Virus record (IMG/VR): IMGVR_UViG_3300027908_000026
Source of the DNA: a virus
DNA length: 64,000 nt
Direction: 5' to 3' (one strand)
The notes under the pieces were generated by a model. That model was not told the DNA's origin, did no database searches, and saw only the letters and a program-made list of their open reading frames with translations. A program made the position numbers and the translations under genes. Of the stretch, positions 37,480 through 59,559 are shown one piece after another (position 1 is the stretch's first letter; every line of letters starts with the position of its first letter).

Positions 37480-38025
37480 ATGATTACTGAATTTAAGAAT
37501 CTGTATGATTTTTTCAGTTACGCAGAGTTTTGTCCGCTCTGTGAAAAAAGACTAAGTTATACGGCCATTCTACCAATTGCTACCTCGTCTATTTTGAACG
37601 GACAGAGGTTCATTGTTTATAGTTCACTTAATGGTGAAAAAATATTAGATATAGATTTGGTAGATAATTCCTTTTGTATCTCTACTCCGCCCCCACCGTA
37701 TGTAAATATTTTCACTAATACTATACATTTACAAATAAGACAACAGTGTCGTAAATATCATTACCAACATATTGGATCTGTATTTTTGCATATTGGAACA
37801 AAAACTATTAATCTTATACAGCTTGACAGGAAGCATCTCCATGAACAAGTTAATAATAGTCATTTTGCTATCGCAGTTTCTTATGGAAATCGAAATGAGA
37901 CAAGTGTAAAGATTACGCCGTGCGGCAGTAAAACAAAAGAGGTAACTTTTAATTGCTCCGATTTTGATTTAAGTAGCCGAAAAAAGATCATTAGTAGGCT
38001 GCGAACAATTCAATTGCTAGGATAA
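37480..38025 (+). CDS. C-tag protein, Zn-ribbon family
   Basis: CPLC; ends RLRTIQLLG*. Confidence 0.8.
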   Translation: MITEFKNLYDFFSYAEFCPLCEKRLSYTAILPIATSSILNGQRFIVYSSLNGEKILDIDLVDNSFCISTPPPPYVNIFTNTIHLQIRQQCRKYHYQHIGSVFLHIGTKTINLIQLDRKHLHEQVNNSHFAIAVSYGNRNETSVKITPCGSKTKEVTFNCSDFDLSSRKKIISRLRTIQLLG

Positions 38026-38079
38026 ACTAATTGTAAATTTACAACTCAATACAAAATTCTAGAGATATAAATACTTTGG

Positions 38080-38679
38080 ATGAGAAGCATTAGGGAGTTT
38101 GTATATTATTATCGTAGTTGCCCACTCTGTGGAAACTGGATGACACTGGACGTCGATTCACCGCTGGCAACAACACTTGAAATCAAAAATGACGGGCTAC
38201 TACTTACAGTAATCGAAGAAAATCGAGAAGACAACAAAGAATTTTTTATAGATTTCAAACAAAATAAAGTTCATTCAGAACATCCCTTCGTACTAAAAAG
38301 CATTGTAAATATAATAAAAAGATTATATTACCCGGACTATGATGAATCATTTAAGATAGAAGCTAGATGTTATAGCTGTAATAATTTTAGATATTGGTCA
38401 AAAAATATGACATATAATGAAATGAGCAAGAGGCTAAATAATATTGGAATTAGCGGTGAACGCTTTCAGATGCATGAACTGAGTGGAACTAATGATAAGA
38501 TATCATACAAGATATCAAATGATTATAGAGCAAAAGAAACTAAACTGTATGTTTCCAGACCAAGTATAAGTAAAAAGATATTAACTATTAAAGTTCCGTT
38601 CATGCCTTTTGATAACATAAATTTTAATGATAAGGAAAAGATTCTAAACAAGATAAAAAATATGTTGGTGCTAGCGTAA
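38080..38679 (+). CDS. C-tag protein, Zn-ribbon family
   Basis: CPLC...CYSC; ends KIKNMLVLA*. Confidence 0.8.
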   Translation: MRSIREFVYYYRSCPLCGNWMTLDVDSPLATTLEIKNDGLLLTVIEENREDNKEFFIDFKQNKVHSEHPFVLKSIVNIIKRLYYPDYDESFKIEARCYSCNNFRYWSKNMTYNEMSKRLNNIGISGERFQMHELSGTNDKISYKISNDYRAKETKLYVSRPSISKKILTIKVPFMPFDNINFNDKEKILNKIKNMLVLA

Positions 38680-39252
38680 ATGTACATACGAGACTTTTTA
38701 GATTTTGGTAAGATTTGCCGAGTCTGTGGGAGCACAGGTACTAAAAGGATACTTGTATCTCTATACACAGTTATGTCGGAAGGAATACCAATCACGGAGG
38801 CTGAGGTTAAGAATGATGAATTAGTTTTCAAGATTGACATGCCTCTTAGGGAAGCTTTTCTGCTGTACACCCTTAGTATTGATGAGCACAGAGCGGACCG
38901 CAAAATTTTTAATCCAAAGAATTTTGACATGCTTTACGCCAACAATTTTAAGTTTACTCTTTCATGTACTGAGTGCGAACTCTATCAACTGGAATCTAGC
39001 ATGGTAACTTTTCATCCGCTTGGAAGTTTAACGAGCAACATATACCCAGATTCAGAGAAAATAACTATCGAGGACAATGACAGCATCTTTATTGTTAAAA
39101 ACTTAATAAGTGCTGATAGAGTCTTGATAAACTACTCATGCAACGATAATTGTGGGCTCATAGATTTACCATTTATAAAGATGAAGAATTTACCAGTAAA
39201 GAACAAATCAAAGATGTTAAGAAAACTGCGTACATTAATGTTGTTGTCGTAG
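38680..39252 (+). CDS. C-tag protein, Zn-ribbon family
   Basis: CRVC...CTEC; ends KLRTLMLLS*. Confidence 0.8.
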   Translation: MYIRDFLDFGKICRVCGSTGTKRILVSLYTVMSEGIPITEAEVKNDELVFKIDMPLREAFLLYTLSIDEHRADRKIFNPKNFDMLYANNFKFTLSCTECELYQLESSMVTFHPLGSLTSNIYPDSEKITIEDNDSIFIVKNLISADRVLINYSCNDNCGLIDLPFIKMKNLPVKNKSKMLRKLRTLMLLS

Positions 39253-39291
39253 CTTGACTATTTGCAGTTCGTGTACACACTATCTAGACCA

Positions 39292-39888
39292 ATGCTGATT
39301 AAAAATTTTATAGAATCTTACAAAAGCTGCCCCCTCTGTAGCGCCCCTTTAACAATCGAAGCAGAGAGTGCTTTTACTGGCGGGCCTACCCATACATCCT
39401 TTGCCGTTATGGTTGAAGATGAACAGCTTACAATAAATGTAAAAAGCGATTTTTTTGTAAGTGCCCGGCAACAAGCATTCGATTTTACAATTTCCGTCAC
39501 TGATGGCCAAATTATTTCTTGTGATCAGACTAACCAGTTCGTATCACTTTATGATTTAGAGATTATTCTCAAGAAGGAATGCATGGCGTGTGCTCGCAAA
39601 TTTCCGGGCGAAGTATTCTCTAAACAGATAGCGATACACTATGATAGATACGATAGTTCTTTTATTTCTAGGCCGTTAACTGAAAGCTTTGGTGTTGCTG
39701 ATGAATATAATTACTATTATTTTTGTAATAACTTTACAAACCGTGTATCGTTTTTGACCGTTCAACCTATCGGTAAAAGTACAAGGAATCCGCCCCTGCA
39801 TACACCATATATCCCATTCGAAAAATTCGATTTTTCCAATAGAGAGAAACTACTGCATAAGATACAATCTATACAGTTACTGCGATGA
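39292..39888 (+). CDS. C-tag protein, Zn-ribbon family
   Basis: CPLC...CMAC; ends KIQSIQLLR*. Confidence 0.8.
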   Translation: MLIKNFIESYKSCPLCSAPLTIEAESAFTGGPTHTSFAVMVEDEQLTINVKSDFFVSARQQAFDFTISVTDGQIISCDQTNQFVSLYDLEIILKKECMACARKFPGEVFSKQIAIHYDRYDSSFISRPLTESFGVADEYNYYYFCNNFTNRVSFLTVQPIGKSTRNPPLHTPYIPFEKFDFSNREKLLHKIQSIQLLR

Positions 39889-40466
39889 ACCCCCACGAGT
39901 TCCTACAAAAGTATCCAGTGTGCCCAAAGTGTGCTGCTGAGTTTAGGCAACACTTAATGGTATTTTCAGATGATATGATAGAGCCATGCTCCATCAGGAC
40001 CTATTCTTTGAGAGAATACGATTTGAAAATTAGTATGGAAGTCCCAGGTCATCCTAATATGTTAGACTTTTCAATTAACTATACCGATGGTGCTGTTAAA
40101 CTTTATAACAATACCAAATGGGACGATTTTCACTCCAATGAACCATTTAGCGTGAGTTTAGATTTTGCTTGCGAGAATTGCGGAATCTTTGAACACAGAG
40201 GAGTCTATGTTAGTTTCTTCGGCAGAACTTTAGCAAACGTATTCGATTTTGGTTGTGATCTAATATACTTTCAGTATGTCATAGATGATGTTTTGTATGC
40301 CGTTTCGACAGATTACGAAAATGGTAAAACCACGTTAGAGATTCATAAATTGAATATAGGTTTCCACCATAAACTAGAACTGCCAGTAATTGAGTTGAGT
40401 GTATTTGATTTTTCCGATAAATCAAAGATGAAAGAGAAGCTTGATACTATCATGCTTCTAGCGTAA
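39885..40466 (+). CDS. C-tag protein, Zn-ribbon family
   Basis: CPKC...CENC; ends KLDTIMLLA*. Confidence 0.8.
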   Translation: MNPHEFLQKYPVCPKCAAEFRQHLMVFSDDMIEPCSIRTYSLREYDLKISMEVPGHPNMLDFSINYTDGAVKLYNNTKWDDFHSNEPFSVSLDFACENCGIFEHRGVYVSFFGRTLANVFDFGCDLIYFQYVIDDVLYAVSTDYENGKTTLEIHKLNIGFHHKLELPVIELSVFDFSDKSKMKEKLDTIMLLA

Positions 40467-40478
40467 GTTTGGAACAAG

Positions 40479-40703
40479 ATGACCAATAGATATGATACTA
40501 TTGTTAATGTGTTTGAGGAAGAGTTTCGAGAAAAATTCTCCAAATATATTCTACGTTCAGGGAGTAGCAAAAAGAAGCTGCGTAAATTCTTTTTTGACAT
40601 AGCTATATTAGGCCCTAACACTATGAAAATTCTAGTTTCTGTAATTGAAAAAGATTTCCCAGAGCATAAAAAGCTATTAGATAAGATCCTTGTCCTCATC
40701 TAA
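40479..40703 (+). CDS. C-tag protein, small helical type
   Basis: Ends DFPEHKKLLDKILVLI*. Confidence 0.75.
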   Translation: MTNRYDTIVNVFEEEFREKFSKYILRSGSSKKKLRKFFFDIAILGPNTMKILVSVIEKDFPEHKKLLDKILVLI

Positions 40704-40707
40704 TACT

Positions 40708-41100
40708 ATGCAGTTAAATGATTTTCTAGAGTTAGTTTCCACCTGCCCAACATGCGGCAGTCGCATGGTTCATCAGATCGTGGAGTTGCATAAAGCTCAT
40801 GGCAATCGTAAAGTGGCATTTTTAGACTGCTCGTGCAAAGTTAATCATTTTTACTATGAGTCTTATGAATTTATATCTAATGATACGAGTAATCCTGAAA
40901 TTGAATTAACTACGGTATCTATCTATTTCATAGACTTTTCCGCGACGTGGTTTGACGACAAAAAAGAGCTAGTTTTCAGAGAATTAGATGGGACAATAGT
41001 TGCTAGAGCGCATCTGCCCAATAAGAATATTTTTGATTGGATTGTAAACCCGTACAAAAACATAGTTGATAAGATTAGCAATATGCTTCTTCTCAAATGA
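40708..41100 (+). CDS. C-tag protein, Zn-ribbon family
   Basis: CPTC; ends KISNMLLLK*. Confidence 0.78.
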   Translation: MQLNDFLELVSTCPTCGSRMVHQIVELHKAHGNRKVAFLDCSCKVNHFYYESYEFISNDTSNPEIELTTVSIYFIDFSATWFDDKKELVFRELDGTIVARAHLPNKNIFDWIVNPYKNIVDKISNMLLLK

Positions 41101-41106
41101 AACTGA

Positions 41107-41187
41107 TTAGTACCAATTGACAAATTGCTGACTGGTGGCAAAACTAATGTAAGGAAGAAGCTGGATAGCCTGCTGGTGTCGGTATGA
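41107..41187 (+). pseudogene. Start-less C-tag remnant
   Basis: LVPIDKLLTGGKTNVRKKLDSLLVSV*, stop overlaps ATG of next gene. Confidence 0.5.
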
Positions 41188-41726
41188 ATTTGCTCGAATT
41201 ATTTTTAGAGTGTTCAGTTTGCCCCCTATGCAATGTTAATGTTAAACCAACATTAAATGTACTAATGCATTGTGGCGGTAGAACAGACTATACCCTTACA
41301 GGATATAAATATCCTTTAGTTTTCACAAAACATTTAGATTACGGTCTTGCACCTACGTCATTCTTTATTCAAGATAAGACTGACATCCTGGAAAATTCTT
41401 TAGAGGCCAGAGTTACAAACGTCACGCTTCATTCGTACTGCCCATGTGACAACTACTACTGTGAGTTTTTTAGAATAGCATCTATGCCAATGAACATTTT
41501 AGCAATATATCCAACCGCCAGAGAATCAATAATTATTGGTAAATATCAGATTATAAATCATATTATAACTAGTTTACGCGGTTCTACTGTTGTAAGAAAA
41601 TATTCACAATATCATACAGATGATTACATTCTATTATTTAAGAACCTAGTTTCTAGAAGTGCATGGCCATTTACTGATGAGACAGCCTTTGAGGAAAAGG
41701 TTAATAAACTGCTATTACTCAAATAG
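41184..41726 (+). CDS. C-tag protein, Zn-ribbon family
   Basis: CPLC; ends KVNKLLLLK*. Confidence 0.8.
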   Translation: MNLLELFLECSVCPLCNVNVKPTLNVLMHCGGRTDYTLTGYKYPLVFTKHLDYGLAPTSFFIQDKTDILENSLEARVTNVTLHSYCPCDNYYCEFFRIASMPMNILAIYPTARESIIIGKYQIINHIITSLRGSTVVRKYSQYHTDDYILLFKNLVSRSAWPFTDETAFEEKVNKLLLLK

Positions 41727-41734: not shown

Positions 41735-42331
41735 ATGAACCTAGATGAATTCATCAACTTTAGAAGAAATTGTTTGGTCTGTGGGGAACCGAACAGAGTA
41801 TCTCTGCAGGGAGTTATACAAGAACAGCTGGGAGATGATGAATACGAAATTGCGACTGTATATCATTTTACTGACTGTGTTGATAGAAAGAAATTTATAA
41901 CCTTTGCATCACAAAAATATTTACTGATACCTTCGGGAGATTTAGATGTTGATACTTACAACACAGATAAGTTTTCCAGCTTTGTTCTCAGTAAAGATGG
42001 GTATGTAGAGTTTGATAAAGAATTTCAGTTTAAGATGAGAATAGGGATGACATCGGCTTGCCCTAGGGCTCACTATAGTTATTCATCAAGAAAGATTAAG
42101 ATTTCAGAAAAGTCTATGGATATATCAAGGGGATATCCGGTCATCACGGAAGAGCTGAGATGTGGAAATTATCGTGTAATATCGAATTCAAAGACCGATA
42201 AAACCTCAATATTTAATACCGAAGTTTCAAATGAACCTATTATTATCCCACGTAGGGAAATCACTAGTTTTCCATACGATGACCAGGATAAGTTTATAAA
42301 AAAGCTGCAGAACATTATGCTTTTGGCATGA
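41735..42331 (+). CDS. C-tag protein, Zn-ribbon family
   Basis: CLVC; ends KLQNIMLLA*. Confidence 0.8.
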   Translation: MNLDEFINFRRNCLVCGEPNRVSLQGVIQEQLGDDEYEIATVYHFTDCVDRKKFITFASQKYLLIPSGDLDVDTYNTDKFSSFVLSKDGYVEFDKEFQFKMRIGMTSACPRAHYSYSSRKIKISEKSMDISRGYPVITEELRCGNYRVISNSKTDKTSIFNTEVSNEPIIIPRREITSFPYDDQDKFIKKLQNIMLLA

Positions 42332-43458: not shown

Positions 43459-43752
43459 ATGAGTATGACCCCAGAACGCTTGGCAGATGTAATGTTTAAC
43501 GAACTTCAAAAGAATTTCAAATATTATTTAAGAGATGGAAGGTATGGAGTTAACTACTTCTTTGAGGGCATTAGATATTGCATCAAGTATAGTATGGACT
43601 ACAAACCTTTCATAAGAAGATTATTTATCAATAAATCTGATTTCGTTGTCCCACTCTATGATAGAATCCTAAATACAACTGAATGGACACTAGCTCCTAA
43701 TGTAAAACAAGATATAATTGATTTTCTTGAGAAATTCGTCATACTAAAATGA
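43459..43752 (+). CDS. C-tag protein
   Basis: Ends FLEKFVILK*. Confidence 0.75.
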   Translation: MSMTPERLADVMFNELQKNFKYYLRDGRYGVNYFFEGIRYCIKYSMDYKPFIRRLFINKSDFVVPLYDRILNTTEWTLAPNVKQDIIDFLEKFVILK

Positions 43753-44318: not shown

Positions 44319-44648
44319 GTGCAAAGTGTGGCGGAATCATATAAGACTAATTTAACAATCTGCCCAGTTTGTTTTAAGAACACCATAGCAGGAGACGAGG
44401 AAGGATTCCCTGGTTCTGGCAGTGAACAATGGGGTACGACTCATATTGGTTGTAATAACTGTTTGAGTTTCTATGTTACATTGTCATTCAAAATGTCCCG
44501 CGGTACGCGTTGGTATACAACAGGTATTATTATAAACAGTCGTGAAATGCGCGAAACTCTTTTTGTTAAAAAGTTTCATTCACTAGTACTAGATACTAAA
44601 GGCAAAGATTTAGCAGAACGTATAAATGCTACAATGATATTACTTTAA
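44319..44648 (+). CDS. C-tag protein, Zn-ribbon family
   Basis: CPVC...CNNC; ends RINATMILL*. Confidence 0.72.
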   Translation: MQSVAESYKTNLTICPVCFKNTIAGDEEGFPGSGSEQWGTTHIGCNNCLSFYVTLSFKMSRGTRWYTTGIIINSREMRETLFVKKFHSLVLDTKGKDLAERINATMILL

Positions 44649-44692: not shown

Positions 44693-45067
44693 GTGATAGA
44701 TTTTTCGCGCCACTACGATTCAATCGAAGAACTTGATAAAGCTTATAGTTCATGTTTGCTTTGTGGCGCTAAAAATGTGTGGTGTTGGGAATTTATAAGA
44801 TGCAAAAATTGTTGGTTAGAAATTTACTATAATACTGCATACGACAACTACGGAGAGTACGAAAAATATCATATTGCCAATTTGGTGCTACATGATAAGC
44901 CGTTCAAAGTATTTATAGGAAATTATAGCACAATTCATTTTTCAAATTTACCATTCAAGGAATTTCAGCCGGTATATTTTCCTTTCTCGAAATTTGAACT
45001 CATTAAAAATTGGCACAATGAAGGCAATCTTAAAAATAAGATAGAATCCCTGCTTGTATTGGTATAA
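44693..45067 (+). CDS. C-tag protein, Zn-ribbon family
   Basis: CLLC...CKNC; ends KIESLLVLV*. Confidence 0.75.
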   Translation: MIDFSRHYDSIEELDKAYSSCLLCGAKNVWCWEFIRCKNCWLEIYYNTAYDNYGEYEKYHIANLVLHDKPFKVFIGNYSTIHFSNLPFKEFQPVYFPFSKFELIKNWHNEGNLKNKIESLLVLV

Positions 45068-45188: not shown

Positions 45189-46037
45189 TCAGATTCCACG
45201 ACAGAAGAAATCGTAAAATTTTCCCTTATCCACCTTGACGCTGATAAACGTGTTGGTGCCAGTTTTTTCCTTGCAGCCCCATTCGCCACGTTCGCGGAAC
45301 ATTTCAACTTCTTTGAAAGAACAAATGCTGTTGTCAACGGCACAGCATGCTGCTAGTGGATCATGCAGTAGCTTTCCGGCAGGATGCCTATCCAAGTAGA
45401 CATCCATTAATCTTTTTATAGTCTGATGACCAGCGAATTTTTTGTGCAATTCAGCGTCATATAGAACACCATGACAGACATTCTTGCTAACAAGATAGCG
45501 CTTCTTAAATCCATCATATGCGAGTACGAGTTGGGCAGCAGGAACGTTGCCATTAAAATTAAATGTTGGGCAAGTAATCTTACCGGCGAACTTTTCTAAT
45601 CTATCTTCGGCCGCGACAACATTGTCACCAGCGAAGCCTCCCTGCAAAACAATGGCATCAAGCTTTATTTGATAGTCTTCTATGGCCTTCTTTATATTTC
45701 CCAGTGGCCCGCCTGTTAGAATTATTGAGTCCGGGAACTGACCAAGCACAGCAGCTATGACGTCAGCCCCAGAGCCGTTTGCATGTCCCGGCTCAATCTT
45801 ACCGAGCCAAGCGTAGTGGAACGCACTAACGCATTCCTTTGGATGCTCAGGTCTTTCAGCTCCGACAGGAATCTCTTTGCCGAATAGTTTTATTATGTGC
45901 TGCACGAGTCCAATCTGAGCATGAGAGCCTGGCGTCACAGTCACGCCACGCAAATTGACTTCTGGTCTAGATAGAAGCCAGCACAATGTAATTGCATCAT
46001 CTGGATCACTTGTTTCCATATCAAATATTATATTCAT
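45189..46037 (-). CDS. Inosine/uridine-preferring nucleoside hydrolase family protein
   Basis: IIFDMETSDPDDA, LTGGPLGN, TFNF, LHDPLAA. Confidence 0.85.
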   Translation of the reverse strand: MNIIFDMETSDPDDAITLCWLLSRPEVNLRGVTVTPGSHAQIGLVQHIIKLFGKEIPVGAERPEHPKECVSAFHYAWLGKIEPGHANGSGADVIAAVLGQFPDSIILTGGPLGNIKKAIEDYQIKLDAIVLQGGFAGDNVVAAEDRLEKFAGKITCPTFNFNGNVPAAQLVLAYDGFKKRYLVSKNVCHGVLYDAELHKKFAGHQTIKRLMDVYLDRHPAGKLLHDPLAACCAVDNSICSFKEVEMFRERGEWGCKEKTGTNTFISVKVDKGKFYDFFCRGI

Positions 46038-48091: not shown

Positions 48092-48173
48092 TTGTCGATA
48101 TGTTGTTCTCGGCGGATGAATAAAAATAAGTTGCCGATATGAACATAAGTGTTAAGTTATAGTTGTCGATATG
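48092..48173 (+). repeat. Three direct copies of TTG(T/C)CGATATG
   Basis: 48092-48102, 48131-48141, 48163-48173; the last supplies the ATG of the next gene. Confidence 0.6.
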
Positions 48174-50551: not shown

Positions 50552-50586
50552 CATAAACTCCATGCCTGATGCATTTATATGGAGCA

Positions 50587-50835: not shown

Positions 50836-51164
50836 GAGCATTATTTGATTGGTCAGATCCATCTTCAGCGGTTTTGCCAATGTGGCGGACCTTTAATATA
50901 ATCGCTGTTAGATGTGATATGCAGAACCGTGCGGTTGTCGCAGTAAGAGAAGAGAAGGGCAAAGACTATGATGCAACACGAAAGTGGCCACAATGCTGCA
51001 TCCCAAAGTCAATATATAAAATAGGTTTTGCAATAGATGATTTCGATGCGGTCAAAACAAGAGTGGTATTTTTAGATATTGAAGCTGCAAAAGCTCATGT
51101 CGATACGATAATGGCAGAACTTGGATATAAGACAATACATCTAGATTTACGAGTGCTTCTATGA
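50832..51164 (+). CDS. C-tag protein, GYK...KxLL family
   Basis: MRALFDW; ends GYKTIHLDLRVLL*. Confidence 0.78.
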   Translation: MRALFDWSDPSSAVLPMWRTFNIIAVRCDMQNRAVVAVREEKGKDYDATRKWPQCCIPKSIYKIGFAIDDFDAVKTRVVFLDIEAAKAHVDTIMAELGYKTIHLDLRVLL

Positions 51165-51463
51165 TAAGGGGATTATTTGACTGGGAACCGGTACCACTCA
51201 CATCATGTCATCCATCCTGCTTCGTAAGAATGTCAGTGAAGAGGAAGATTGTACTCCGATTAGTTGAGGAACGTTGGAAGGACGATAAAATACTTGTGCG
51301 ATGTATTACTTATTGCAAGCGTAATAACATGTATGATATTCTCGACCTGCATCTCCACAATAAAGTATATGCAACTCTTGAAGATGCTAAAAGTACAATT
51401 AACTGTGCACTACAGAAACTCGGATATAAAACACTGCCAGATAAACTAAAGATACTGCTATGA
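51161..51463 (+). CDS. C-tag protein, GYK...KxLL family
   Basis: MIRGLFDW; ends GYKTLPDKLKILL*. Confidence 0.78.
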   Translation: MIRGLFDWEPVPLTSCHPSCFVRMSVKRKIVLRLVEERWKDDKILVRCITYCKRNNMYDILDLHLHNKVYATLEDAKSTINCALQKLGYKTLPDKLKILL

Positions 51464-51819
51464 AAACTATATATTTAGGGCCATGGAAAGAAATCTGGTA
51501 TACTGGTGCGAGCAGGCCATCCTTCGAAAGACCGGTGATTGGTAAGCCAACAGTTTCTGGTGGGGATGGTTCCATATACATGTTTGGTGGCGTTGTAGTA
51601 TACTGGTACGAAACAAAACAACTATATAGCGATAGTGGTTTCGATACATTGTGCCGTAGATTTACAGCTGGCGCCATAGTTGGTAAAAGTGCAAAAAGTG
51701 TAATGAGGAAGGTAGATGCAAAGTTTATGGGTATAGAACAAAGTTTTGATGGCGGAGAAACATATATGCTTGTTCCACTAGACAAAAAGAAATATCAATC
51801 ATTAATGGTTCTAGCATAG
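51460..51819 (+). CDS. C-tag protein
   Basis: Ends KYQSLMVLA*. Confidence 0.75.
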   Translation: MKTIYLGPWKEIWYTGASRPSFERPVIGKPTVSGGDGSIYMFGGVVVYWYETKQLYSDSGFDTLCRRFTAGAIVGKSAKSVMRKVDAKFMGIEQSFDGGETYMLVPLDKKKYQSLMVLA

Positions 51820-51845: not shown

Positions 51846-52211
51846 GTGAACAAAGACATATCCCAGTTAGCAACCAAATTCGACAAGCTCGCCCAGCAGA
51901 CCCAGCCAGCTGCAACTGACGCAGGGCTTATCGATAGTATATCAAATGCTCTCCAGCATGCAGCTCAGTCGCTTGCTACTGATGCTGCTCATGTGGCGGA
52001 GTTTCAAAGAGCAATGGCACCACTGCTCCAAGCGAGACGCAACTGGAATGCACTCTCTCCCCAGAATAAGCTCCAGATTATAACATCTGTGTTTCAGCAA
52101 TACACAAGCCTGCCACAAAACTACATGGACCCAAACAATTTCAAGCCCGTTGCTCTGCGTGACAATATATCGAGACTGTTTTCGAAGCTCGTATCACAGT
52201 ATAGGGGCTAA
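51846..52211 (+). CDS. Gln/Ala-rich helical protein with LAxxF leader
   Basis: MNKDISQLATKFDKLAQ. Confidence 0.75.
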   Translation: MNKDISQLATKFDKLAQQTQPAATDAGLIDSISNALQHAAQSLATDAAHVAEFQRAMAPLLQARRNWNALSPQNKLQIITSVFQQYTSLPQNYMDPNNFKPVALRDNISRLFSKLVSQYRG

Positions 52212-52480
52212 AGAAGAACAATAAGCTTTTCAAGTGTTGCAAGCTCTTCGGGGTAATCTCGGAGAGCTTCTTTTATATATGGAATAGCAGTGGGGTTGTT
52301 AAAGATTAAATCCTTAACTGTAAAACTATAGCATTTTGTCTTAAAACATGCTTGATAATAATCAATCATACACACGTACTGAACAAAGTTCATGCGCTGA
52401 TAAATCTTTGTTTGAAGCCAGCAGTTATGGCATTGCTCTAATCCCTGCCGAACACATCTATTAATTGATTTGTCTTTCAT
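52208..52480 (-). CDS. C-tag protein, Cys-rich CxxxGL family
   Basis: CVRQGLEQCHNC; ends DYPEELATLEKLIVLL*. Confidence 0.78.
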   Translation of the reverse strand: MKDKSINRCVRQGLEQCHNCWLQTKIYQRMNFVQYVCMIDYYQACFKTKCYSFTVKDLIFNNPTAIPYIKEALRDYPEELATLEKLIVLL

Positions 52481-52731
52481 TTGAGTACCATAAGCTTCTC
52501 ATATACTGCAAGCTTTTCTGGGTACTCCCGCAGTGCAGCAATAAGATACTGTGATTGAAGAGGAACCCTAATCTTATTTTCTACAATCATAGAACGTATA
52601 TCCCAATCCTTTACTAACTTTCTATACTCGTCGATCCAGCACCGTGTACCAAACTTATTTAATGGAGAACCTAATTTTTTTCTAATGCAGCCCGGGCAAT
52701 CTTTGAGCCCATAATCGGAGCACGTTTTCAT
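52477..52731 (-). CDS. C-tag protein, Cys-rich CxxxGL family
   Basis: CSDYGLKDCPGC...CW; ends EYPEKLAVYEKLMVLK*. Confidence 0.78.
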   Translation of the reverse strand: MKTCSDYGLKDCPGCIRKKLGSPLNKFGTRCWIDEYRKLVKDWDIRSMIVENKIRVPLQSQYLIAALREYPEKLAVYEKLMVLK

Positions 52732-52764: not shown

Positions 52765-53058
52765 TTATTTCTTATTATCTTTTTTCGACTTCAACCGGTG
52801 ACACGCAACGCATAAAATTTGAAGCCCACTCGAAGGACAGAAGAGTCGTTCGATATAAGTATTGAAGTCTTTACACTTACCGATTGCTACAATGTGATCA
52901 ACTTCAATCTTTTTGCGTTGAAAGATACCACCACACTTATTGCATTTATATTTACCATATGCTACCTTTGCAGCTTTCAATGCGGACTGTCTTTGTTTTG
53001 ATCTGCCCCACGTTCTTCGTAAGGATGCCTTGATATAGTTAGTTACAGCTTTTTCCAT
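52765..53058 (-). CDS. Small HNH endonuclease
   Basis: CNKC...VDHIV...LQILCVACH. Confidence 0.8.
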   Translation of the reverse strand: MEKAVTNYIKASLRRTWGRSKQRQSALKAAKVAYGKYKCNKCGGIFQRKKIEVDHIVAIGKCKDFNTYIERLFCPSSGLQILCVACHRLKSKKDNKK

Positions 53059-53066: not shown

Positions 53067-53351
53067 TTATAACAAGAGCAATAAGCTCTGAACTATCTCT
53101 TTCTTATCAGGGTAGTTTGATACTATGGCCATAAAGTGCTCTCTTTGATAATCATTTTTAAGATACCATACTGCAGCTTTCTTAAATTCCCGGTTGGACA
53201 TTTTTTGCATTTTCTTTTCGAATTTATCCATCTGACAGATGGCGGAAAATAAAGAGTCCATCTCCGCTATTTTTATCTCCGTTGCATGATTGTACCACCA
53301 GTAACATTCACCACAGGCTTTGAGCCCTTCTTTTATACATCGTCCTATCAT
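53067..53351 (-). CDS. C-tag protein, Cys-rich CxxxGL family
   Basis: CIKEGLKACGEC; ends NYPDKKEIVQSLLLLL*. Confidence 0.78.
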   Translation of the reverse strand: MIGRCIKEGLKACGECYWWYNHATEIKIAEMDSLFSAICQMDKFEKKMQKMSNREFKKAAVWYLKNDYQREHFMAIVSNYPDKKEIVQSLLLLL

Positions 53352-53608
53352 ACAAGCACCAATAACTTCTCATATACTGCAAGCATTTCGGGATGTCGCT
53401 GCAGTGCCGCAATAAAGTAGTTGTGATAGTTGTAGTGATACACGCCAGTTACTTCTTCCACATAGCTTACTGCACGCAATTTGATATATTCATTTGTTAA
53501 TACATTTTCATACCAGCTAACCCAGCATTCTTTCTTGACCTGCCCACGTTCTGCCCAATAACATTCGCGACATTGTTCCAATCCCATCTCGACGCATATA
53601 TTAATCAT
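53348..53608 (-). CDS. C-tag protein, Cys-rich CxxxGL family
   Basis: CVEMGLEQCREC...ECW; ends HPEMLAVYEKLLVLV*. Confidence 0.78.
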   Translation of the reverse strand: MINICVEMGLEQCRECYWAERGQVKKECWVSWYENVLTNEYIKLRAVSYVEEVTGVYHYNYHNYFIAALQRHPEMLAVYEKLLVLV

Positions 53609-53844
53609 TTTAATACCAATAAACTTTCGAACTTTTCAATTGAGTCTGCTGGGTCATCCTCATTCATATCCACCCGCTTTTTGACAAAGCATATAGTACC
53701 ATCGGAACGAATAATCGTAGTCCAGAAATCGCATACTCTATATGTAATAGTACCTGCTGCAGTTTTTATACTATATGCTGTAACAACAATTCGCGCGCCA
53801 TCTGCGTCCTCGTAAAGCTTTTCTTTCTTTTTCGTAATTCTCAT
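53605..53844 (-). CDS. C-tag protein
   Basis: Ends PADSIEKFESLLVLK*. Confidence 0.75.
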   Translation of the reverse strand: MRITKKKEKLYEDADGARIVVTAYSIKTAAGTITYRVCDFWTTIIRSDGTICFVKKRVDMNEDDPADSIEKFESLLVLK

Positions 53845-54095
53845 AGCAGTGTCTTTAAGTGTTCAGGTAGTGGCACAAAATTATTCTTTGTAAGAGCTTC
53901 TAGTATATGATTATTTGCATCATCAAATGTATCAAACTTTACCCATCCATCCCATGTGCCATAAACATTCTTATATATGGTACCATTTATTGTCGTACTT
54001 AACCGAATTACCTGCGCAAGTAGATTATGCTTTGTGTCTAAATACTTTCTTCCAAGTAAGTCAGTATAGTCTTCACAGTAGTAAAATCTTTTCAC
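53841..54095 (-). CDS. C-tag protein, GYK...KxLL family
   Basis: Ends NFVPLPEHLKTLL*. Confidence 0.75.
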   Translation of the reverse strand: MKRFYYCEDYTDLLGRKYLDTKHNLLAQVIRLSTTINGTIYKNVYGTWDGWVKFDTFDDANNHILEALTKNNFVPLPEHLKTLL

Positions 54096-54436: not shown

Positions 54437-54688
54437 CTACAGCAGTGCTTTGAAATGGTCTTCTAGATGTTTATATCCTAAAGAAGAAAGACTTTCTACT
54501 ATATAATTTACTGCGGCCTCAAAGGTTTCGAATTTTCTACATTTATCGTTTAATAAACTGCAACATGCTCGATATCCATCATAAGAAGAAATACTACTTA
54601 TAATAGTTCTTCCTTTTACTTGTACAAAATACCAAGTATAACACCTGCTTGATTTACAATTGCAGGGTTCTGGCCCATAGAATTTCAT
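54437..54688 (-). CDS. C-tag protein, GYK...KxLL family
   Basis: Ends GYKHLEDHFKALL*. Confidence 0.78.
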   Translation of the reverse strand: MKFYGPEPCNCKSSRCYTWYFVQVKGRTIISSISSYDGYRACCSLLNDKCRKFETFEAAVNYIVESLSSLGYKHLEDHFKALL

Positions 54689-54885
54689 AGCAGCACCGAT
54701 AGTTTATCGAATATTGGTATATGTCTCTTGGCATCTGCTACAATGAGACATGCCCTAACAATATTAGCATCGTAGTACCTGAGAAGATGTACAATACAAC
54801 GCCGAGGATTTTCCATTCCCCAGTGAGAATTTACAGTATCTATGATGTCTATATAAGAGCTAGGATCAGTGTATCGAGTTGTCAT
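54685..54885 (-). CDS. C-tag protein, helical type
   Basis: Ends IFDKLSVLL*. Confidence 0.72.
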   Translation of the reverse strand: MTTRYTDPSSYIDIIDTVNSHWGMENPRRCIVHLLRYYDANIVRACLIVADAKRHIPIFDKLSVLL

Positions 54886-55172
54886 AATAATGTTTTATAG
54901 TGCTCTGGCATTTGTTTGTAACCCGAATTTACAAGATCAGCTAATATGTAATCTTGTGCTTCTGCAAGAGTATTAAAGCTCACTCCTAAGGGATAAGCGC
55001 CCACATAACAGTAAGCTCTATATTCATCTTTCTTAACAGTAAGATCTGGTTCACAAAAGTGGAATACATCGGCTAGTATATTACCAATTAAATCTTTGTA
55101 TATCCAAACGCGCGACTTGCCACCCCACCTGACACCAGCATTTGGTATAAAAAATGCTTTATAAGCATTCAT
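54882..55172 (-). CDS. C-tag protein, GYK...KxLL family
   Basis: Ends GYKQMPEHYKTLL*. Confidence 0.78.
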   Translation of the reverse strand: MNAYKAFFIPNAGVRWGGKSRVWIYKDLIGNILADVFHFCEPDLTVKKDEYRAYCYVGAYPLGVSFNTLAEAQDYILADLVNSGYKQMPEHYKTLL

Positions 55173-55423
55173 GCAAGCACCATTAGTTTTTCATATATTG
55201 CAGACAGTTCTGGATTGCGTTTGAGAGCTGCAAGAAAATATATGTGATATGTTGGAGTATAGTGCTTACTACGATTAATCACTCTAGCTCTAATGTATTT
55301 GTCTGATATAATGCGTTCATAGAAATAAACCCAACATTCTTTTCCAAGAGATTTGCGTTGATCTTCTGCATTCCATCGACAGAAGTTGCAGACAGGCAGT
55401 CCCAGTTCAATGCAAGTGCTCAT
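55169..55423 (-). CDS. C-tag protein, Cys-rich CxxxGL family
   Basis: CIELGLPVCNFC...ECW; ends NPELSAIYEKLMVLA*. Confidence 0.78.
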   Translation of the reverse strand: MSTCIELGLPVCNFCRWNAEDQRKSLGKECWVYFYERIISDKYIRARVINRSKHYTPTYHIYFLAALKRNPELSAIYEKLMVLA

Positions 55424-55479: not shown

Positions 55480-55698
55480 ATGAGTAATGGTTGGACTATG
55501 GTTGCGAAAAAGATTATTAATTTGGAATTAAGAACGGGCAGTCGTCTTCGTAAGCCCGGAGCTTTCAAAGAGGCAGTCTTAAGCTTATTTGATGTATTTG
55601 ATAGAGACCCAGCAGTTATAGCATATATTAGGAAAAGGATTCGGCGCCAATATAAAGAGTATAGCGAGTGGTACGATAAGATTATTGTGTTATTATAA
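55480..55698 (+). CDS. C-tag protein, helical type
   Basis: Ends WYDKIIVLL*. Confidence 0.75.
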   Translation: MSNGWTMVAKKIINLELRTGSRLRKPGAFKEAVLSLFDVFDRDPAVIAYIRKRIRRQYKEYSEWYDKIIVLL

Positions 55699-55725: not shown

Positions 55726-56028
55726 ATGAATCATTCTAAGATACTAGAGCTTGCAACGCAGTTCCATAAAAATGCAGTAGAACCACCCACCCAAGAAGGG
55801 AAACATCATATAGATGTTGATGCCATTGTCCTTGCTCTTAAAGAACTTGGTTCCGCAACGTTGGATGAGCTATCGAGAAAGACTAAAACCTATGATAGAA
55901 CTCTTATTCGTATATTAGAAAAGCTTATTGAGACAGGTATTGTCAATAAGAGACAAGAAGAACGCAAACGAAAAGCTTTTCAAGGAAGCACAAGAATCTT
56001 TAATGTTAATGTGTATTCTGTTGTTTAG
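55726..56028 (+). CDS. Winged-helix protein with LAxxF leader
   Basis: MNHSKILELATQFHKNA; ATLDELSRKT...LIRILEKLIETGIV. Confidence 0.7.
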   Translation: MNHSKILELATQFHKNAVEPPTQEGKHHIDVDAIVLALKELGSATLDELSRKTKTYDRTLIRILEKLIETGIVNKRQEERKRKAFQGSTRIFNVNVYSVV

Positions 56029-56309
56029 ATTAGTATAGCTAACTTGTCTTCGCCATTAATCAATCTCCAACCAGCCGCTACCAAAGCAGCATCGACGGTT
56101 TTCATTGCGGCATCTTTTGATGTTACGCCGCGGTCCAATAAAGGTTTTGTAAAAATACCCACACTGTTGCAATCATAAGCGTCGAAATACCACGCTCCAA
56201 AATGAACACTATACCAAACACAGCCGCACCATCTGCTTCTATCATGATGCCTGATTCTATAATTGGAAGCGCCACGTTCTCTCCATGGTAATGCAATATA
56301 GTTCTTCAT
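56025..56309 (-). CDS. C-tag protein, GYK...KxLL family (variant)
   Basis: Ends GWRLINGEDKLAILI*. Confidence 0.75.
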   Translation of the reverse strand: MKNYIALPWRERGASNYRIRHHDRSRWCGCVWYSVHFGAWYFDAYDCNSVGIFTKPLLDRGVTSKDAAMKTVDAALVAAGWRLINGEDKLAILI

Positions 56310-56602
56310 ATCAGCACCTGCATATGTTGCGGTAGTTGTTTATAACCGTTTTGAATCAAGTGAGATATTGTATACTTTTCTGCTTCTTCGTATGTTCTAA
56401 ATTGCATAACAGTAAACATTATTTCGGGTTCCGAGTTAAAATATGTTGTCAAATGATATTTGATACCATTTTGTGGTTCTCCCATACGACGCCAAATACG
56501 TACTAATAAAGTTTTGTTTTTGTTCGGTATAAAGAACTTCCAGTTTGCGTCATAATAAGTAGCAGCAAGTGGAATTTCATCAGATTGTATAAAAGCTTTC
56601 AT
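56306..56602 (-). CDS. C-tag protein, GYK...KxLL family
   Basis: Ends GYKQLPQHMQVLI*. Confidence 0.78.
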   Translation of the reverse strand: MKAFIQSDEIPLAATYYDANWKFFIPNKNKTLLVRIWRRMGEPQNGIKYHLTTYFNSEPEIMFTVMQFRTYEEAEKYTISHLIQNGYKQLPQHMQVLI

Positions 56603-56877
56603 AATAGTGTTTTGTAATGGTCCCCTAGCAATTTATAACCAAGCTTACATAGGTTGTTCAATATATGGTTTTCTGCTTCTTCGAAACTGTCAAACTCAAT
56701 GCCTGTCATACTATCATTTGTACACCATGCGTTGTATGTATTCATTTCTTTGTTAAACCTAATGTCTGCAATAGTTGTATAATGCCCAGAAGCTTCGAGG
56801 TACTCATAAAGCCAGGCAACTGTTGTGATGTCTCGGAAGAATTTTCCAATTTTCCTTGGTCCAAAACATACTTTCAT
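56599..56877 (-). CDS. C-tag protein, GYK...KxLL family
   Basis: MKVCFGP start by family similarity; ends GYKLLGDHYKTLL*. Confidence 0.78.
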   Translation of the reverse strand: MKVCFGPRKIGKFFRDITTVAWLYEYLEASGHYTTIADIRFNKEMNTYNAWCTNDSMTGIEFDSFEEAENHILNNLCKLGYKLLGDHYKTLL

Positions 56878-56915
56878 AATAACACCTGTAAAATAATCTT
56901 GTAGAATTTTCTCAT
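56874..56915 (-). CDS. 13-aa mini-ORF MRKFYKIILQVLL, essentially the C-tag alone
   Basis: ATGA overlap at both ends, exactly filling the gap between two family genes. Confidence 0.55.
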   Translation of the reverse strand: MRKFYKIILQVLL

Positions 56916-57178
56916 AATAGTGCTTTATAGTGGTCTGCCATTTGCTTATATCCAAGCTTTGTTAGGCCTTCCAATAGATAGTGGTTAGCGTCTATTAAAC
57001 TATTAAATACACCATACATGATCTTAGATATATTATAGTTTATATAAAAAATAACAGTATAATTAGAAGTTTCATCATAGTAAAATATATTTGCTATGAC
57101 AACGTTTTTTGAATCCATATACTGCCAAATTGTAACACCATCGGCGATTCCAATATTGGGCCCGAAAACCGCTTTCAT
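56912..57178 (-). CDS. C-tag protein, GYK...KxLL family
   Basis: MKAVFGP; ends GYKQMADHYKALL*. Confidence 0.78.
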   Translation of the reverse strand: MKAVFGPNIGIADGVTIWQYMDSKNVVIANIFYYDETSNYTVIFYINYNISKIMYGVFNSLIDANHYLLEGLTKLGYKQMADHYKALL

Positions 57179-57429
57179 AATAACAGCATATACCTTTCTG
57201 GCAGCACTTTATAATTTCGACATTCTAAGTATTCTTTGCACCAACAGCAAGCTTCTTCAAAGGTTTCAAAGTTTTTGTATGCTCCCTCATAATAGCAGCA
57301 TATATTGTATGACTTATTTGTGTATCTAATAATGTCTACGATAACATCCTGCAGCGAATCATAATAAACCCATTTCTCCATTCCGGATTTTGAGTTTATA
57401 TTGCAGCAAATTGGCCCGAAGATTATCAT
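57175..57429 (-). CDS. C-tag protein, GYK...KxLL family
   Basis: MIIFGP start by family similarity; ends NYKVLPERYMLLL*. Confidence 0.72.
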   Translation of the reverse strand: MIIFGPICCNINSKSGMEKWVYYDSLQDVIVDIIRYTNKSYNICCYYEGAYKNFETFEEACCWCKEYLECRNYKVLPERYMLLL

Positions 57430-57511: not shown

Positions 57512-57772
57512 ATGAAAAAGATTGTGTTCGACTGGGAGCAAGAGAAGTCTAGCGTATTCGAGCTGTGTATAGTACATTTTGATGCAGATAGAAATTGGAT
57601 TGCATCCGTTGTAAAGCTATCCAAGGATACGTATCTTGTTAACTTCAATGGTAGAACAATATTGGACCAACAAGTTTTTACAAATATCAATAATGCAAAA
57701 GCTTATGTCGATAATAAGCTAAAACATCTTGATTATAAGATAATTGCTCTTGATTATAAGGCGCTCTTATAA
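57512..57772 (+). CDS. C-tag protein, GYK...KxLL family
   Basis: MKKIVFDWE; ends DYKIIALDYKALL*. Confidence 0.78.
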   Translation: MKKIVFDWEQEKSSVFELCIVHFDADRNWIASVVKLSKDTYLVNFNGRTILDQQVFTNINNAKAYVDNKLKHLDYKIIALDYKALL

Positions 57773-57777
57773 ACATT

Positions 57778-58041
57778 TCATAATAAAAGCAAAAGCTTCT
57801 GAAACTTATCATAAAGCTTGGGAACTTTCTTTGCTGCTACGAGCATATATGGAAGACTGTTCTTATTAAATGCTCTAATAAAATCCGTATAGTCTTTTGC
57901 CGTAGTAAAGGATTTTGTTTCAAATATCGTGCTAAAGAAATCTATATAGCATTCACAGCTAGCAGGATTAATCCCACGGTTTGACCAATAACTGCACCAC
58001 GGGCATCTCGGAAGACCATTCTTTTCACAATTGTTCATCAT
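57778..58041 (-). CDS. C-tag protein, Cys-rich CxxxGL family
   Basis: CEKNGLPRCPWC; ends KFQKLLLLL*. Confidence 0.78.
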   Translation of the reverse strand: MMNNCEKNGLPRCPWCSYWSNRGINPASCECYIDFFSTIFETKSFTTAKDYTDFIRAFNKNSLPYMLVAAKKVPKLYDKFQKLLLLL

Positions 58042-58316
58042 AGTAATGTCTTATAATGATCTGGTAAATGTTTGTATCCCAATTCTATTAGAGCAGCATC
58101 CATGTACTGCATCGTTTCTTCAAGGGAATCGAATTTCTGCTGCGTCATCATCATAATATCGCCATACATATGTAGAACAAAATGTTTGGAAGTTTCGTGC
58201 TTGATAATAAATGCTATGCAGGCGCCATGTATATCGCAGCAGCGCCATATATTATAGGATGTTCCAGAAGGAGTTTTATATTCTCCGCCGTAGTTTGCCG
58301 TAAAGAATGCTTTCAT
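58038..58316 (-). CDS. C-tag protein, GYK...KxLL family
   Basis: MKAFF; ends GYKHLPDHYKTLL*. Confidence 0.78.
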   Translation of the reverse strand: MKAFFTANYGGEYKTPSGTSYNIWRCCDIHGACIAFIIKHETSKHFVLHMYGDIMMMTQQKFDSLEETMQYMDAALIELGYKHLPDHYKTLL

Positions 58317-58561
58317 AGTAGACAACGTAATTTCATTACGTCCTCGTAATATTCTGGATATTCTGTTTTAATCACAGCAAATATAATATCCATAAGATCA
58401 GAATGTGTAGAAAAACGAGCTTCCTGCGACCAAATGTTTATAATACTTAGCAGTGTAAACTTCATATTGAATGATTCTTTTCCCATCTGCATGTTAATGT
58501 ATTTCTTTGTAATAGTTCTGCATTGCTCAAATGCAAGTTGTTTTTGTTGTTCATTCATCAT
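58313..58561 (-). CDS. C-tag protein, helical type
   Basis: Ends EYPEYYEDVMKLRCLL*. Confidence 0.75.
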   Translation of the reverse strand: MMNEQQKQLAFEQCRTITKKYINMQMGKESFNMKFTLLSIINIWSQEARFSTHSDLMDIIFAVIKTEYPEYYEDVMKLRCLL

Positions 58562-58571
58562 GTGTGCACCA

Positions 58572-58700
58572 TCAGATAAGTAATGAGAGCTTCTCTAGCA
58601 TCATAAGTTGTTTTGGGTAGTCCTGCAGCAGTGCATCTATTGCGCATCGTGAGAATATAACCAGTCTACGGCATGCTGCTATATAATAAACAAATGAAAA
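58572..58700 (-). pseudogene. Start-less C-tag remnant
   Basis: ...AIDALLQDYPKQLMMLEKLSLLI*, close to EALRDYPEELATLEKLIVLL* of 52208..52480. Confidence 0.55.
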
Positions 58701-58903
58701 CTATTACAATAGATGAGATGATAACAAGATTCGAAATGGCGCGCCAAGAGGAAGAGCTTCATAGATGGATGGTCGAAGCAATCCGCAGGTTTGTCAAGCA
58801 GCATATAAATAACAAGCAAATGATGGATATGTTTATTGAGATGGTTAAGAAAGAATATCCGAATTATTTGGGATATGTAGAGAAGATAATGGTATTGGTA
58901 TGA
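58694..58903 (+). CDS. C-tag protein, helical type
   Basis: Ends EYPNYLGYVEKIMVLV*. Confidence 0.75.
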   Translation: MKTITIDEMITRFEMARQEEELHRWMVEAIRRFVKQHINNKQMMDMFIEMVKKEYPNYLGYVEKIMVLV

Positions 58904-58905
58904 AC

Positions 58906-59172
58906 TTAAAGTAGTATCATATATTTCTCATACATCGGTAGTTTACCTTTATGTTTCAAAGCTGCAAGGAAATAGCTATGAGAACGGGAGTTGTAGTATA
59001 TATCGTTCATGCGATTCTTATATCGTAGCACATTCTGCTTGATAAAAGAGTCAGAAATTATCCGTTCATAGAATTCAATCCAACATTCAGTATTACCATT
59101 ATAGTCAGTGTAATGCTCCATCCCATAGCAGTTGCAGCATTGTTCTAAACCAGCTTCGACGCAAGTGTTCAT
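58906..59172 (-). CDS. C-tag protein, Cys-rich CxxxGL family
   Basis: CVEAGLEQCCNC...ECW; ends MYEKYMILL*. Confidence 0.78.
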   Translation of the reverse strand: MNTCVEAGLEQCCNCYGMEHYTDYNGNTECWIEFYERIISDSFIKQNVLRYKNRMNDIYYNSRSHSYFLAALKHKGKLPMYEKYMILL

Positions 59173-59310
59173 ATAGGAGAGTATAACCATCCTGCAGTAC
59201 GCTGCTATATAGAATGATGATGAATTGTAAAACTTTGGGAGTACAACCATCCTATTGCTGCTGTAAAGTTATGTATTACAGAATCTTGCATTGTGATTTA
59301 TTGGTATAAT

Positions 59311-59559
59311 ATGGAAGTAAAGATAAATAAAGTCGTTCGTAGCGTAGAGTACAGTTGGCCGGATAAAGAAAAAATCTTCTATCTAACAATAGACAATGAC
59401 TCATCGTGGGTTTACGCAATAAATTACAGTAAAGGTATAACTAGTTTGTATCTTATAAATGAGTATATCAAGTTTTCATTTCCGATTGTGATTGAGTTAG
59501 ATGAGAGCAGTCCTTGTAGTAGCATTGAACGGCTTGAGAAATTGTGCGTTCTTACTTAA
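59311..59559 (+). CDS. C-tag protein (last AT-rich gene)
   Basis: Ends PCSSIERLEKLCVLT*, similar to end of 53605..53844. Confidence 0.75.
   Translation: MEVKINKVVRSVEYSWPDKEKIFYLTIDNDSSWVYAINYSKGITSLYLINEYIKFSFPIVIELDESSPCSSIERLEKLCVLT

Follow-up and report, generated by a model that had tools for sequence, protein, structure and literature searches.

In the array of small genes at positions 37,480 to 59,559 of IMG/VR virus record IMGVR_UViG_3300027908_000026, 48 of the 59 curated genes encode proteins that end in the same short C-terminal tail, of pattern [LIVMTAC]-[L/I]-x-stop. The window, i.e. the whole stretch of DNA analysed, is 64 kb (64,000 nucleotides) out of a 74,140-bp metagenome scaffold (ENA ERZ28653432). 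Genes and proteins carrying the tail are called tagged, and tail positions are counted back from the end of the chain (-1, last residue). The tail is strongly enriched, is under selection at the protein level, is found on families unrelated at the profile level and in related phages, and has a fixed register in about 90% of cases. It is interpreted here, with a probability of roughly 0.45, as a common docking handle for one shared partner.

The consensus of the tail is hydrophobic (-8), E/D/Q/N (-7), K (-6), L/I/M/Y (-5), L/M (-4), V/L/I/T (-3), Leu (-2), any residue (-1). The GYK family has a shorter form, H-x-K-T/A/V-L-L. Leu is found at -2 in 47 of the 48 tails of the window, and [Y/F]-P-E precedes the chain end by about 13 residues in many of them. 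Tagged genes are located on both strands (25 and 23) and encode proteins of 66 to 208 aa (median, 94). None of the 48 proteins has a membrane-span-like segment. With no hydrophobic span and so short an element, anchoring in a membrane is unlikely. The pattern occurs at 3.1% of the internal positions of the same proteins (binomial P ~8e-62), in 3/69 open reading frames (ORFs) of the rest of the window and in 5/86 shadow ORFs within the array. With a looser definition of the tail, 40 cases were observed, versus 3 on average and at most 11 in per-protein shuffles. Chance and amino-acid composition are excluded as sources of the tail by the internal-position background and by the shuffles.

An earlier examination of the DNA letters (the sequence-only reading) had listed 48 ORFs with a common tail, split into 11 Zn-ribbon, 14 GYK, 8 Cys-rich and 15 other proteins, and curation gave the same count and the same split. 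The enrichment that it expected relative to other and to shuffled termini is present. It described the tail as a charged residue followed by a hydrophobic run; the element is better read as Leu(-2) plus a free last residue. Two of its ORFs have been shortened (56599-56955 to 56599-56877, and 57175-57690 to about 57175-57429).

The conservation is at the level of the protein, not of the DNA, as had been noticed from the letters. Leu(-2) is encoded by all six of its codons, in the proportions found for Leu elsewhere in these genes; this variety of codons excludes a DNA-level repeat or a recombination site. In 13 orthologous pairs with two syntenic relatives, codon -2 shows 10 synonymous and 0 amino-acid changes. 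The tail is conserved more strongly than the bodies: identity between orthologues is 39% in the body, 100% at -2 and 67 to 73% at -1, -3, -5 and -7. Against L010, the closest relative found (identity of Zn-ribbon orthologues, up to 87%), tail and body alike are saturated at synonymous sites (proportion of synonymous differences, pS, ~0.83-0.85), and the non-synonymous proportion (pN) is 0.10 in the last eight codons versus 0.18 in the bodies.

These data bear on the proposal that the tail is a by-product of a nucleic-acid or translation constraint at gene ends (ATGA overlaps, U-rich leaders, recombination sites). An ATGA stop/start overlap, which requires the last codon to end in A, is indeed found at the end of 26 of the 48 tagged genes, and hydrophobic codons have U in the middle position. 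However, among 86 aligned Cys-rich sequences it is Leu itself that is kept at -2 (83 Leu, 2 Ile, 1 Val), not any U-centred codon; the Leu codons are at background frequencies; the residue is retained while synonymous sites saturate; and the tail is also found on genes that lack a coupled downstream gene, e.g. 44693-45067, 48171-48440 and 59293-59559. Because codons vary freely, uncoupled genes are tagged and Leu is specifically kept, such an artefact is very unlikely, its probability being close to negligible, and the codon data largely refute it.

The bodies that carry the tail are of several kinds. BLAST clustering gave GYK (13-14 members), Cys-rich (8 members), Zn-ribbon (6 members, against 11 in the alignment), as well as two small groups and numerous singletons. 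In the alignment of the GYK family, the penultimate Leu is the sole invariant column; in the Zn-ribbon and Cys-rich alignments, it shares this invariance with the metal-binding Cys ligands. Profiles of four families (GYK, Cys-rich, Zn-ribbon and K-Y-L, the last found in relatives) were compared by HHalign. The probability is at most 10% between any two of them. The only match involves the last 15 columns of Cys-rich and K-Y-L, and trimming of 9 residues abolishes it. A common ancestry of the four families thus has no profile-level support. Many orphans (tagged proteins outside the families) and the Cys-rich family have a longer common end, a helix-[Y/F]-P-E-helix of about 25 residues.

Two tagged proteins were modelled with AlphaFold. 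The Cys-rich protein is predicted as an all-helical domain (86-sequence alignment; predicted local distance difference test, pLDDT, 85), whose tail is the end of helix 71-83 (pLDDT ~84 in the last block). The GYK protein is predicted as a beta-sheet with one long helix and a short strand (pLDDT 86), whose tail is the terminal helix 91-95 (pLDDT ~79 in the last block). The predicted folds of these two families therefore differ, in line with the HHalign result and with the lack of similarity between groups described before. Fold searches with both models (PDB by Foldseek, VIA-wide, AFDB clusters and ESM Atlas) returned weak matches only (Z at most 5.4).

The tail has a long history and a wide distribution among a group of uncultured phages. 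The Cys-rich profile was searched against 1.84 billion protein cluster representatives (50% identity) and gave 91 matches, at least 5 of which are the window's own; 88 of the 91 end in the tail. In the 86-sequence alignment, Leu(-2) is found in 83 sequences (4.07 bits), Lys(-6) in 71 and L/V/I at -3 in 80; positions -8, -5, -4 and -3 are hydrophobic and -7 is E/D/Q/N. Exactly one residue follows Leu in 79 sequences. The last residue is variable (L26, I18, K17, V5, R5, A3, Q3, G3). Zn-ribbon orthologues with 51-87% identity were found on contigs of up to 163.6 kb. In three syntenic loci the tail is carried by 13/31 (L010), 17/40 (L009) and 19/36 (L008) ORFs, so the tail recurs in related phages, where the sequence-only reading had advised looking for it. 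On a 205-kb phage contig with two Cys-rich members (loci L005 and L006), 7/36 and 13/36 ORFs are tagged. Most of these belong to the K-Y-L family (~110 aa; end, N-K-Y-L-C-L-L), in the alignment of which the penultimate Leu is again the sole invariant column. Contigs of more distant large phages, reached via a 457-aa array protein that is itself untagged, have 2-4 tagged ORFs per 20 kb; one distant phage region, with 0/40 tagged ORFs, is the negative control. Family alignments or single proteins used as queries against viral_contigs, metagenome_contigs and genome_contigs yielded no confirmed locus.

If the tail is a docking handle, unrelated small soluble 'heads' would all end in one 8-residue element, of which the penultimate Leu and the preceding hydrophobic residues would fit a pocket on one partner, near the free carboxyl end. 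Many heads would thereby be attached to, or handled by, one machine. This machine could be a ring-shaped protease or chaperone, a platform for assembly or a remodeller of MoxR/vWA type. The existence of a shared reader, its identity and its action are inferred. The sequence-only reading had proposed the same arrangement of variable head and constant docking tail: its unrelated bodies, conserved ends, untagged enzymes and tagged relatives were all found, and a docking partner was not among the findings. Its further suggestion of an anti-host or anti-defence arsenal would be inference only.

The docking handle is favoured because a known device has the same form and another the same head-plus-tether logic. 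HbYX tails (hydrophobic-Tyr-any, at the chain end) plug proteasome activators into the ring (PMC12352868). Like the phage tail, they are C-terminal, with a hydrophobic residue, an invariant penultimate one and a free last one, and for HbYX unrelated carriers meet one machine. In the phage tail, the hydrophobic -3 is found in 80/86 Cys-rich sequences (L/V/I) and the single residue after Leu in 79/86, but the penultimate residue is Leu (83/86, and 47/48 in the window), not Tyr. The phage element is also longer than HbYX (Lys at -6, hydrophobic residues at -8 and from -5 to -3) and predicted helical, and its carriers are dozens of small proteins versus a few ATPase or activator subunits. No 20S-like or HslV-type ring is encoded in the 64-kb window. 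The C-terminal tail of SspB (XB) is described as tethering this adaptor to the ClpX N-domain (PMC12373786; Park et al. 2007, cited there). It is likewise a short hydrophobic/basic end peptide of a protein whose other domain binds cargo, a likeness of form. SspB is a single adaptor and XB is active at any chain position (PMC12373786), whereas about 50 phage proteins hold the tail one residue from the end. Shared C-terminal docking peptides are a known kind of device, and no description of this tail was found in Pfam, PHROGs or the searched literature.

Several observations weigh against a docking handle. Both AlphaFold models place the tail in confident terminal helices, as would also be seen if the tail were packed into the fold. 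Each family has its own flavour of tail (K-Y-L, E-K-L-M-V-L, H-Y-K-T-L-L), passed on by vertical inheritance, and no genome-specific co-variation of tails, suggestive of a co-evolving reader, was found. Because five tail-like motifs in relatives carry 2-6 further residues behind them, the position at the chain end is not absolute (the rule holds in about 90%). No obvious hub (protease, clamp or MoxR/vWA pair) was found within the window.

Most of these observations are accommodated by a structural or self-association element with no reader, i.e. the last turn of a terminal helix that closes the core or forms a homo- or hetero-oligomer interface, and that recurs as an old portable C-terminal helix module inherited by new small genes. 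The continuity of the predicted terminal helices with the domains, the inheritance of tail flavours inside families, the tolerance of extra residues in some orthologues and the helix-[Y/F]-P-E-helix end, more reminiscent of a small module than of a bare peptide, all agree with it. Conversely, one register (Leu at -2, one free residue) is shared by families without profile similarity, the two modelled ones having different predicted folds, and the penultimate Leu is the sole invariant column in GYK and K-Y-L while core residues of the body drift. The structural neighbours of the GYK model, all of them weak matches, reach only residues ~82-86, so that the tail falls outside the common part, and four hydrophobic residues in a row in a helix presumably could not all face one core. 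This purely structural explanation is the foremost rival of the docking handle and is regarded as possible, though short of likely.

As a special case of docking, the tail could mark its carriers for degradation, or serve as an adaptor tag, at an AAA+ protease or a chaperone. It could act as a ClpX N-domain tether (like the SspB tail), as an HbYX-like plug into a protease ring or as a DnaK site, with the timed loss of early proteins or the delivery of bound host targets as outcome. Its form (a basic residue, a Leu-rich hydrophobic run and a free last residue at the chain end) is suited to this role, and in sequence it presumably resembles the SspB tail and DnaK model peptides. HbYX follows the same logic, an SspB-derived tail peptide suffices to tether cargo to ClpXP (PMC12352868, PMC12373786), and some large phages encode ClpP, ClpS and DnaJ-domain proteins (Iyer et al., PMC7824862). 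However, the last residue is often K/R/Q, which is not ssrA-like, the penultimate residue is Leu and not Tyr, and the SspB tail functions anywhere in the chain while the phage tail is held at its end. A degradation tag is rated unlikely.

The motif fits by sequence none of the readers that the sequence-only reading had named. A ClpXP degron of ssrA type has an L-A-A-like end; here, the last residue is K/R/Q in 25/86 sequences and the penultimate one is Leu, not Ala. The same frequent K/R/Q argues against a non-polar end recognised by PDZ or tail-specific (Tsp) proteases, which would require a hydrophobic last residue where the tail has a free one. Clamp-binding motifs are Q-L-x-L-F or Q-L-x-L-x-L for the bacterial beta-clamp and L-D-F-L in the tails bound by the T4 clamp; the phage tail has Lys, not Gln, and no aromatic or acidic residue in its last five positions, and the replication proteins of the window do not carry it. 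Type 1 secretion signals consist of acidic then hydrophobic residues, usually on a repeat-containing protein with an adjoining ABC exporter. Only the loose form of the motif is in common with them, and no exporter or repeat domain is found in the array. T4 internal proteins have an N-terminal capsid-targeting sequence, removed by the head protease, and encapsulin cargo has C-terminal loading peptides. Both are short terminal addresses into an HK97-fold shell, and the phage motif is unlike both. Capsid targeting, the ClpX N-domain, a ring protease and DnaK may be kept as ideas for readers of the tail.

A more specific proposal names as reader a phage MoxR AAA+ ATPase together with its metallopeptidase-vWA partner: the vWA metal site would capture the tail or its carboxyl end, or the peptidase would cut it. 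Tagged proteins would then be akin to the small precursor proteins processed in vWA-MoxR conflict systems. In the 205-kb relative (L006), a gene for a MoxR-like ATPase is located upstream of a gene for a protein in which the HEALH peptidase motif is intact and a DCSGS vWA metal site is present, directly followed by three tagged genes. The pair is known from T4-related jumbo phages (Iyer et al. 2021, PMC7824862), and both peptide capture by vWA and processing of C-terminal peptides by zincins have been published (Kaur et al. 2020, PMC7159879). The cellular systems also include small fast-evolving proteins on whose conserved C-terminal peptide a zincin peptidase acts; in sequence, the published tails (FxSxx, RxD, acidic) bear no relation to the phage tail. 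The adjacency, moreover, concerns one locus in a genome full of tagged genes, the pair was not found in the 64-kb window (part of the phage genome), and it also occurs in N4-like and Staphylococcus jumbo phages. A complex prediction of the L006 metallopeptidase-vWA protein with the adjoining tagged protein, in which both chains were poorly folded, speaks neither for nor against binding. This reader is considered quite improbable.

The proteins of the array that lack the tail include, as had been noticed, its enzymes, homing endonucleases among them: a nucleoside hydrolase and a T5orf172 protein (both Pfam) and an HNH endonuclease (PHROG). GIY-YIG and HNH genes of relatives also lack it. Within their first ~18 residues, 7 of the 11 untagged array proteins and 0/48 tagged ones have a motif [LIVMF]-A-x-x-F (N-motif; as a helix motif, [LIVMF]-A-x-x-F-(E/D)), which is exclusive of the C-terminal tail. 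It is also found in relatives (L008:7905-8474 and L008:17874-19064). A weak match of endolysin or peptidoglycan-binding type was obtained for one N-motif protein (43799-44299). The tail and the exclusive N-terminal L-A-x-x-F helix might together be address labels that sort accessory proteins to two destinations or machines, e.g. a ring that remodels or degrades proteins on the one hand and the inside of the capsid on the other. The tail would make dozens of fast-evolving binder domains interchangeable adaptors for one hub. This broader proposal is rather doubtful.

The sole large gene of the array (49178-50551, + strand) encodes the 457-aa protein mentioned above, which has no family, no tail and an N-motif. 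Its homologues (30-43% identity) are found on many large-phage contigs, usually beside a gene of dual-specificity phosphatase type; in L002 and L003, a Ro60-type vWA gene is a further neighbour. Their 20-kb loci also hold RtcB, PARP and NAD ligase genes. For a flanking 492-aa protein, Atlas look-alikes were uninformative.

Table 1. Tagged genes of the window, and untagged genes of the array cited in the text. Orphans are tagged proteins outside the families. For some proteins a longer C-terminal end is given, shortened by dots.
Protein	Tail or end	Position	Strand	Remarks
Zn-ribbon family	RTIQLLG	37480..38025	+	L008, L009 and L010 orthologues retain the tail
Zn-ribbon family	KNMLVLA	38080..38679	+	family alignment, orthologues
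Zn-ribbon family	RTLMLLS	38680..39252	+	family alignment, orthologues
Zn-ribbon family	QSIQLLR	39262..39888	+	start may be ATG at 39292
Zn-ribbon family	DTIMLLA	39885..40466	+	family alignment, orthologues
Orphan	FPE...DKILVLI	40479..40703	+	
Zn-ribbon family	SNMLLLK	40690..41100	+	family alignment, orthologue
Zn-ribbon family	NKLLLLK	41184..41726	+	L008 orthologue: four residues added beyond the tail
Zn-ribbon family	QNIMLLA	41735..42331	+	family alignment, orthologues
Orphan	EKFVILK	43459..43752	+	
Short Zn-ribbon protein	NATMILL	44319..44648	+	family alignment, orthologue
Short Zn-ribbon protein	ESLLVLV	44693..45067	+	convergent gene next; no coupled downstream gene
Orphan	RPE...DKLLILI	46034..46291	-	
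Orphan	DRLGVLK	46288..46602	-	
gp23 (major capsid)-like N-terminal peptide + module	YPQ...DKLLVLK	46599..46880	-	Pfam Gp23 E=1e-5; PHROG 138
Paralogue of 46599-46880 without gp23-like peptide	DKLLIIK	46885..47121	-	last 60 aa of 46599-46880
Short Zn-ribbon protein	ETMMLLK	47145..47501	+	
GYK family	HLKTLL	47474..47785	+	
Cys-rich family	QSLLTLL	47782..48042	+	
Orphan	DKLALLV	48171..48440	+	
Orphan	YPQ...EKLIILE	48923..49150	+	
GYK family	HTKVLL	50569..50835	+	
GYK family	DLRVLL	50832..51164	+	
GYK family	KLKILL	51161..51463	+	
Orphan	QSLMVLA	51460..51819	+	
Cys-rich family	EKLIVLL	52208..52480	-	
Cys-rich family	EKLMVLK	52477..52731	-	AlphaFold-modelled Cys-rich protein
Cys-rich family	QSLLLLL	53067..53351	-	
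Cys-rich family	EKLLVLV	53348..53608	-	
Orphan	ESLLVLK	53605..53844	-	
GYK family	HLKTLL	53841..54095	-	
GYK family	HFKALL	54437..54688	-	
Orphan	DKLSVLL	54685..54885	-	
GYK family	HYKTLL	54882..55172	-	AlphaFold-modelled GYK protein
Cys-rich family	EKLMVLA	55169..55423	-	
Orphan	DKIIVLL	55480..55698	+	
Divergent GYK-like protein (GWR)	DKLAILI	56025..56309	-	look-alike end at L005:11299-11631
GYK family	HMQVLI	56306..56602	-	
GYK family	HYKTLL	56599..56877	-	start corrected to ATG at 56877
13-codon ORF	LQVLL	56874..56915	-	ATGA overlaps with both neighbouring GYK genes
GYK family	HYKALL	56912..57178	-	
GYK family	RYMLLL	57175..57429	-	start is ATG at 57429; absent from source annotation
GYK family	DYKALL	57512..57772	+	
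Cys-rich family	QKLLLLL	57778..58041	-	
GYK family	HYKTLL	58038..58325	-	
Orphan	YPE...MKLRCLL	58313..58561	-	
Orphan	YPN...EKIMVLV	58673..58903	+	
Cys-rich family	EKYMILL	58906..59250	-	
Orphan	EKLCVLT	59293..59559	+	final tagged gene ahead of GC-rich DNA
Tagged protein outside the array	DKYLVLM	12710..13069	+	weakly (20% identity) like the ~110-aa K-Y-L family
Nucleoside hydrolase		45189..46037		without tail
T5orf172 protein		48491..48874		without tail
HNH endonuclease		52765..53058		without tail
N-motif proteins		42370-42534, 42653-43012, 43799-44299, 49178-50551, 51846-52211, 55726-56028		

Pfam and PHROG scans of the tagged proteins found no family other than a gp23-like peptide, located at the N-terminus of a 93-aa tagged protein (46599-46880). 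This peptide matches the conserved V-Q-P-M-x-x-P-T-G segment of gp23-type major capsid proteins. An orthologue in a relative (L009:19311-19655, - strand) has the same arrangement, which indicates a maintained gene. The segment overlaps 'Gol', the T4 region that the Lit defence protease senses, and a role of the peptide as a decoy is conceivable. The 13-codon ORF may be either a deletion remnant in which frame and coupling are kept and only the tail is left, or a free tail peptide.

The stretch is read here as a small-gene (hyperplastic) region of an uncultured large phage, distantly akin to the T4 superfamily. G+C content is about 36% in the window as far as 59.6 kb. The left 37 kb holds phage-type replication and nucleotide enzyme genes, encoding a gp41/DnaB-like helicase, a second helicase, the alpha and beta subunits of ribonucleotide reductase (RNR), PhoH, ThyX and exonucleases, as well as a sigma-like factor, a tubulin/TubZ-like protein, glycosyltransferases and a GH25 lysozyme. 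The window has no close cultured relative: the RNR has 68% identity with that of Myxococcus phage Mx1, and the helicase only ~23% with those of T4-like cyanophages. Megablast with the array and tblastn with five proteins of the array or of relatives gave no match in 50,697 phage records, where matches are confined to core enzymes. ARAGORN found no tRNA in the window.

Three other features of the window were recorded. The tubulin/FtsZ-family protein (4170-5561, + strand), encoded among the glycosyltransferase and lysozyme genes, matches Pfam Tubulin (6e-15) and has a weak TubZ-like C-terminal domain and a weak PHROG PhuZ match. An HNH endonuclease domain is fused at the front of an IMPDH/dehydrogenase-like enzyme (29000-30313, - strand; L008:1376-2971). 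The product of the window gene ends in V-K-F-V-L-L-G, which is probably a chance likeness to the tail, since the L008 orthologue ends otherwise. Directly past the last tagged gene (59575-64000 and on, L001:1-5300), G+C rises from ~0.38 to 0.53-0.56. The genes beyond this junction lack the tail and have no Pfam family, except for a DUF2786/DUF7168 protein just outside the window. The junction is probably real, because an independent Logan assembly of another run has an identical gene order across it.

For most of the small early genes in large phages no function is known, and about 80% of the genes of this region are tagged. Were the tail only a structural cap, one terminal helix module reused by unrelated small folds would still be unusual. 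If it is one selected handle, finding its reader would place dozens of orphan proteins, here and in many uncultured relatives, in one pathway, and transfer of the tail peptide would allow other proteins to be tethered to the reader machine. A general principle of the organisation of phage proteomes may be involved.

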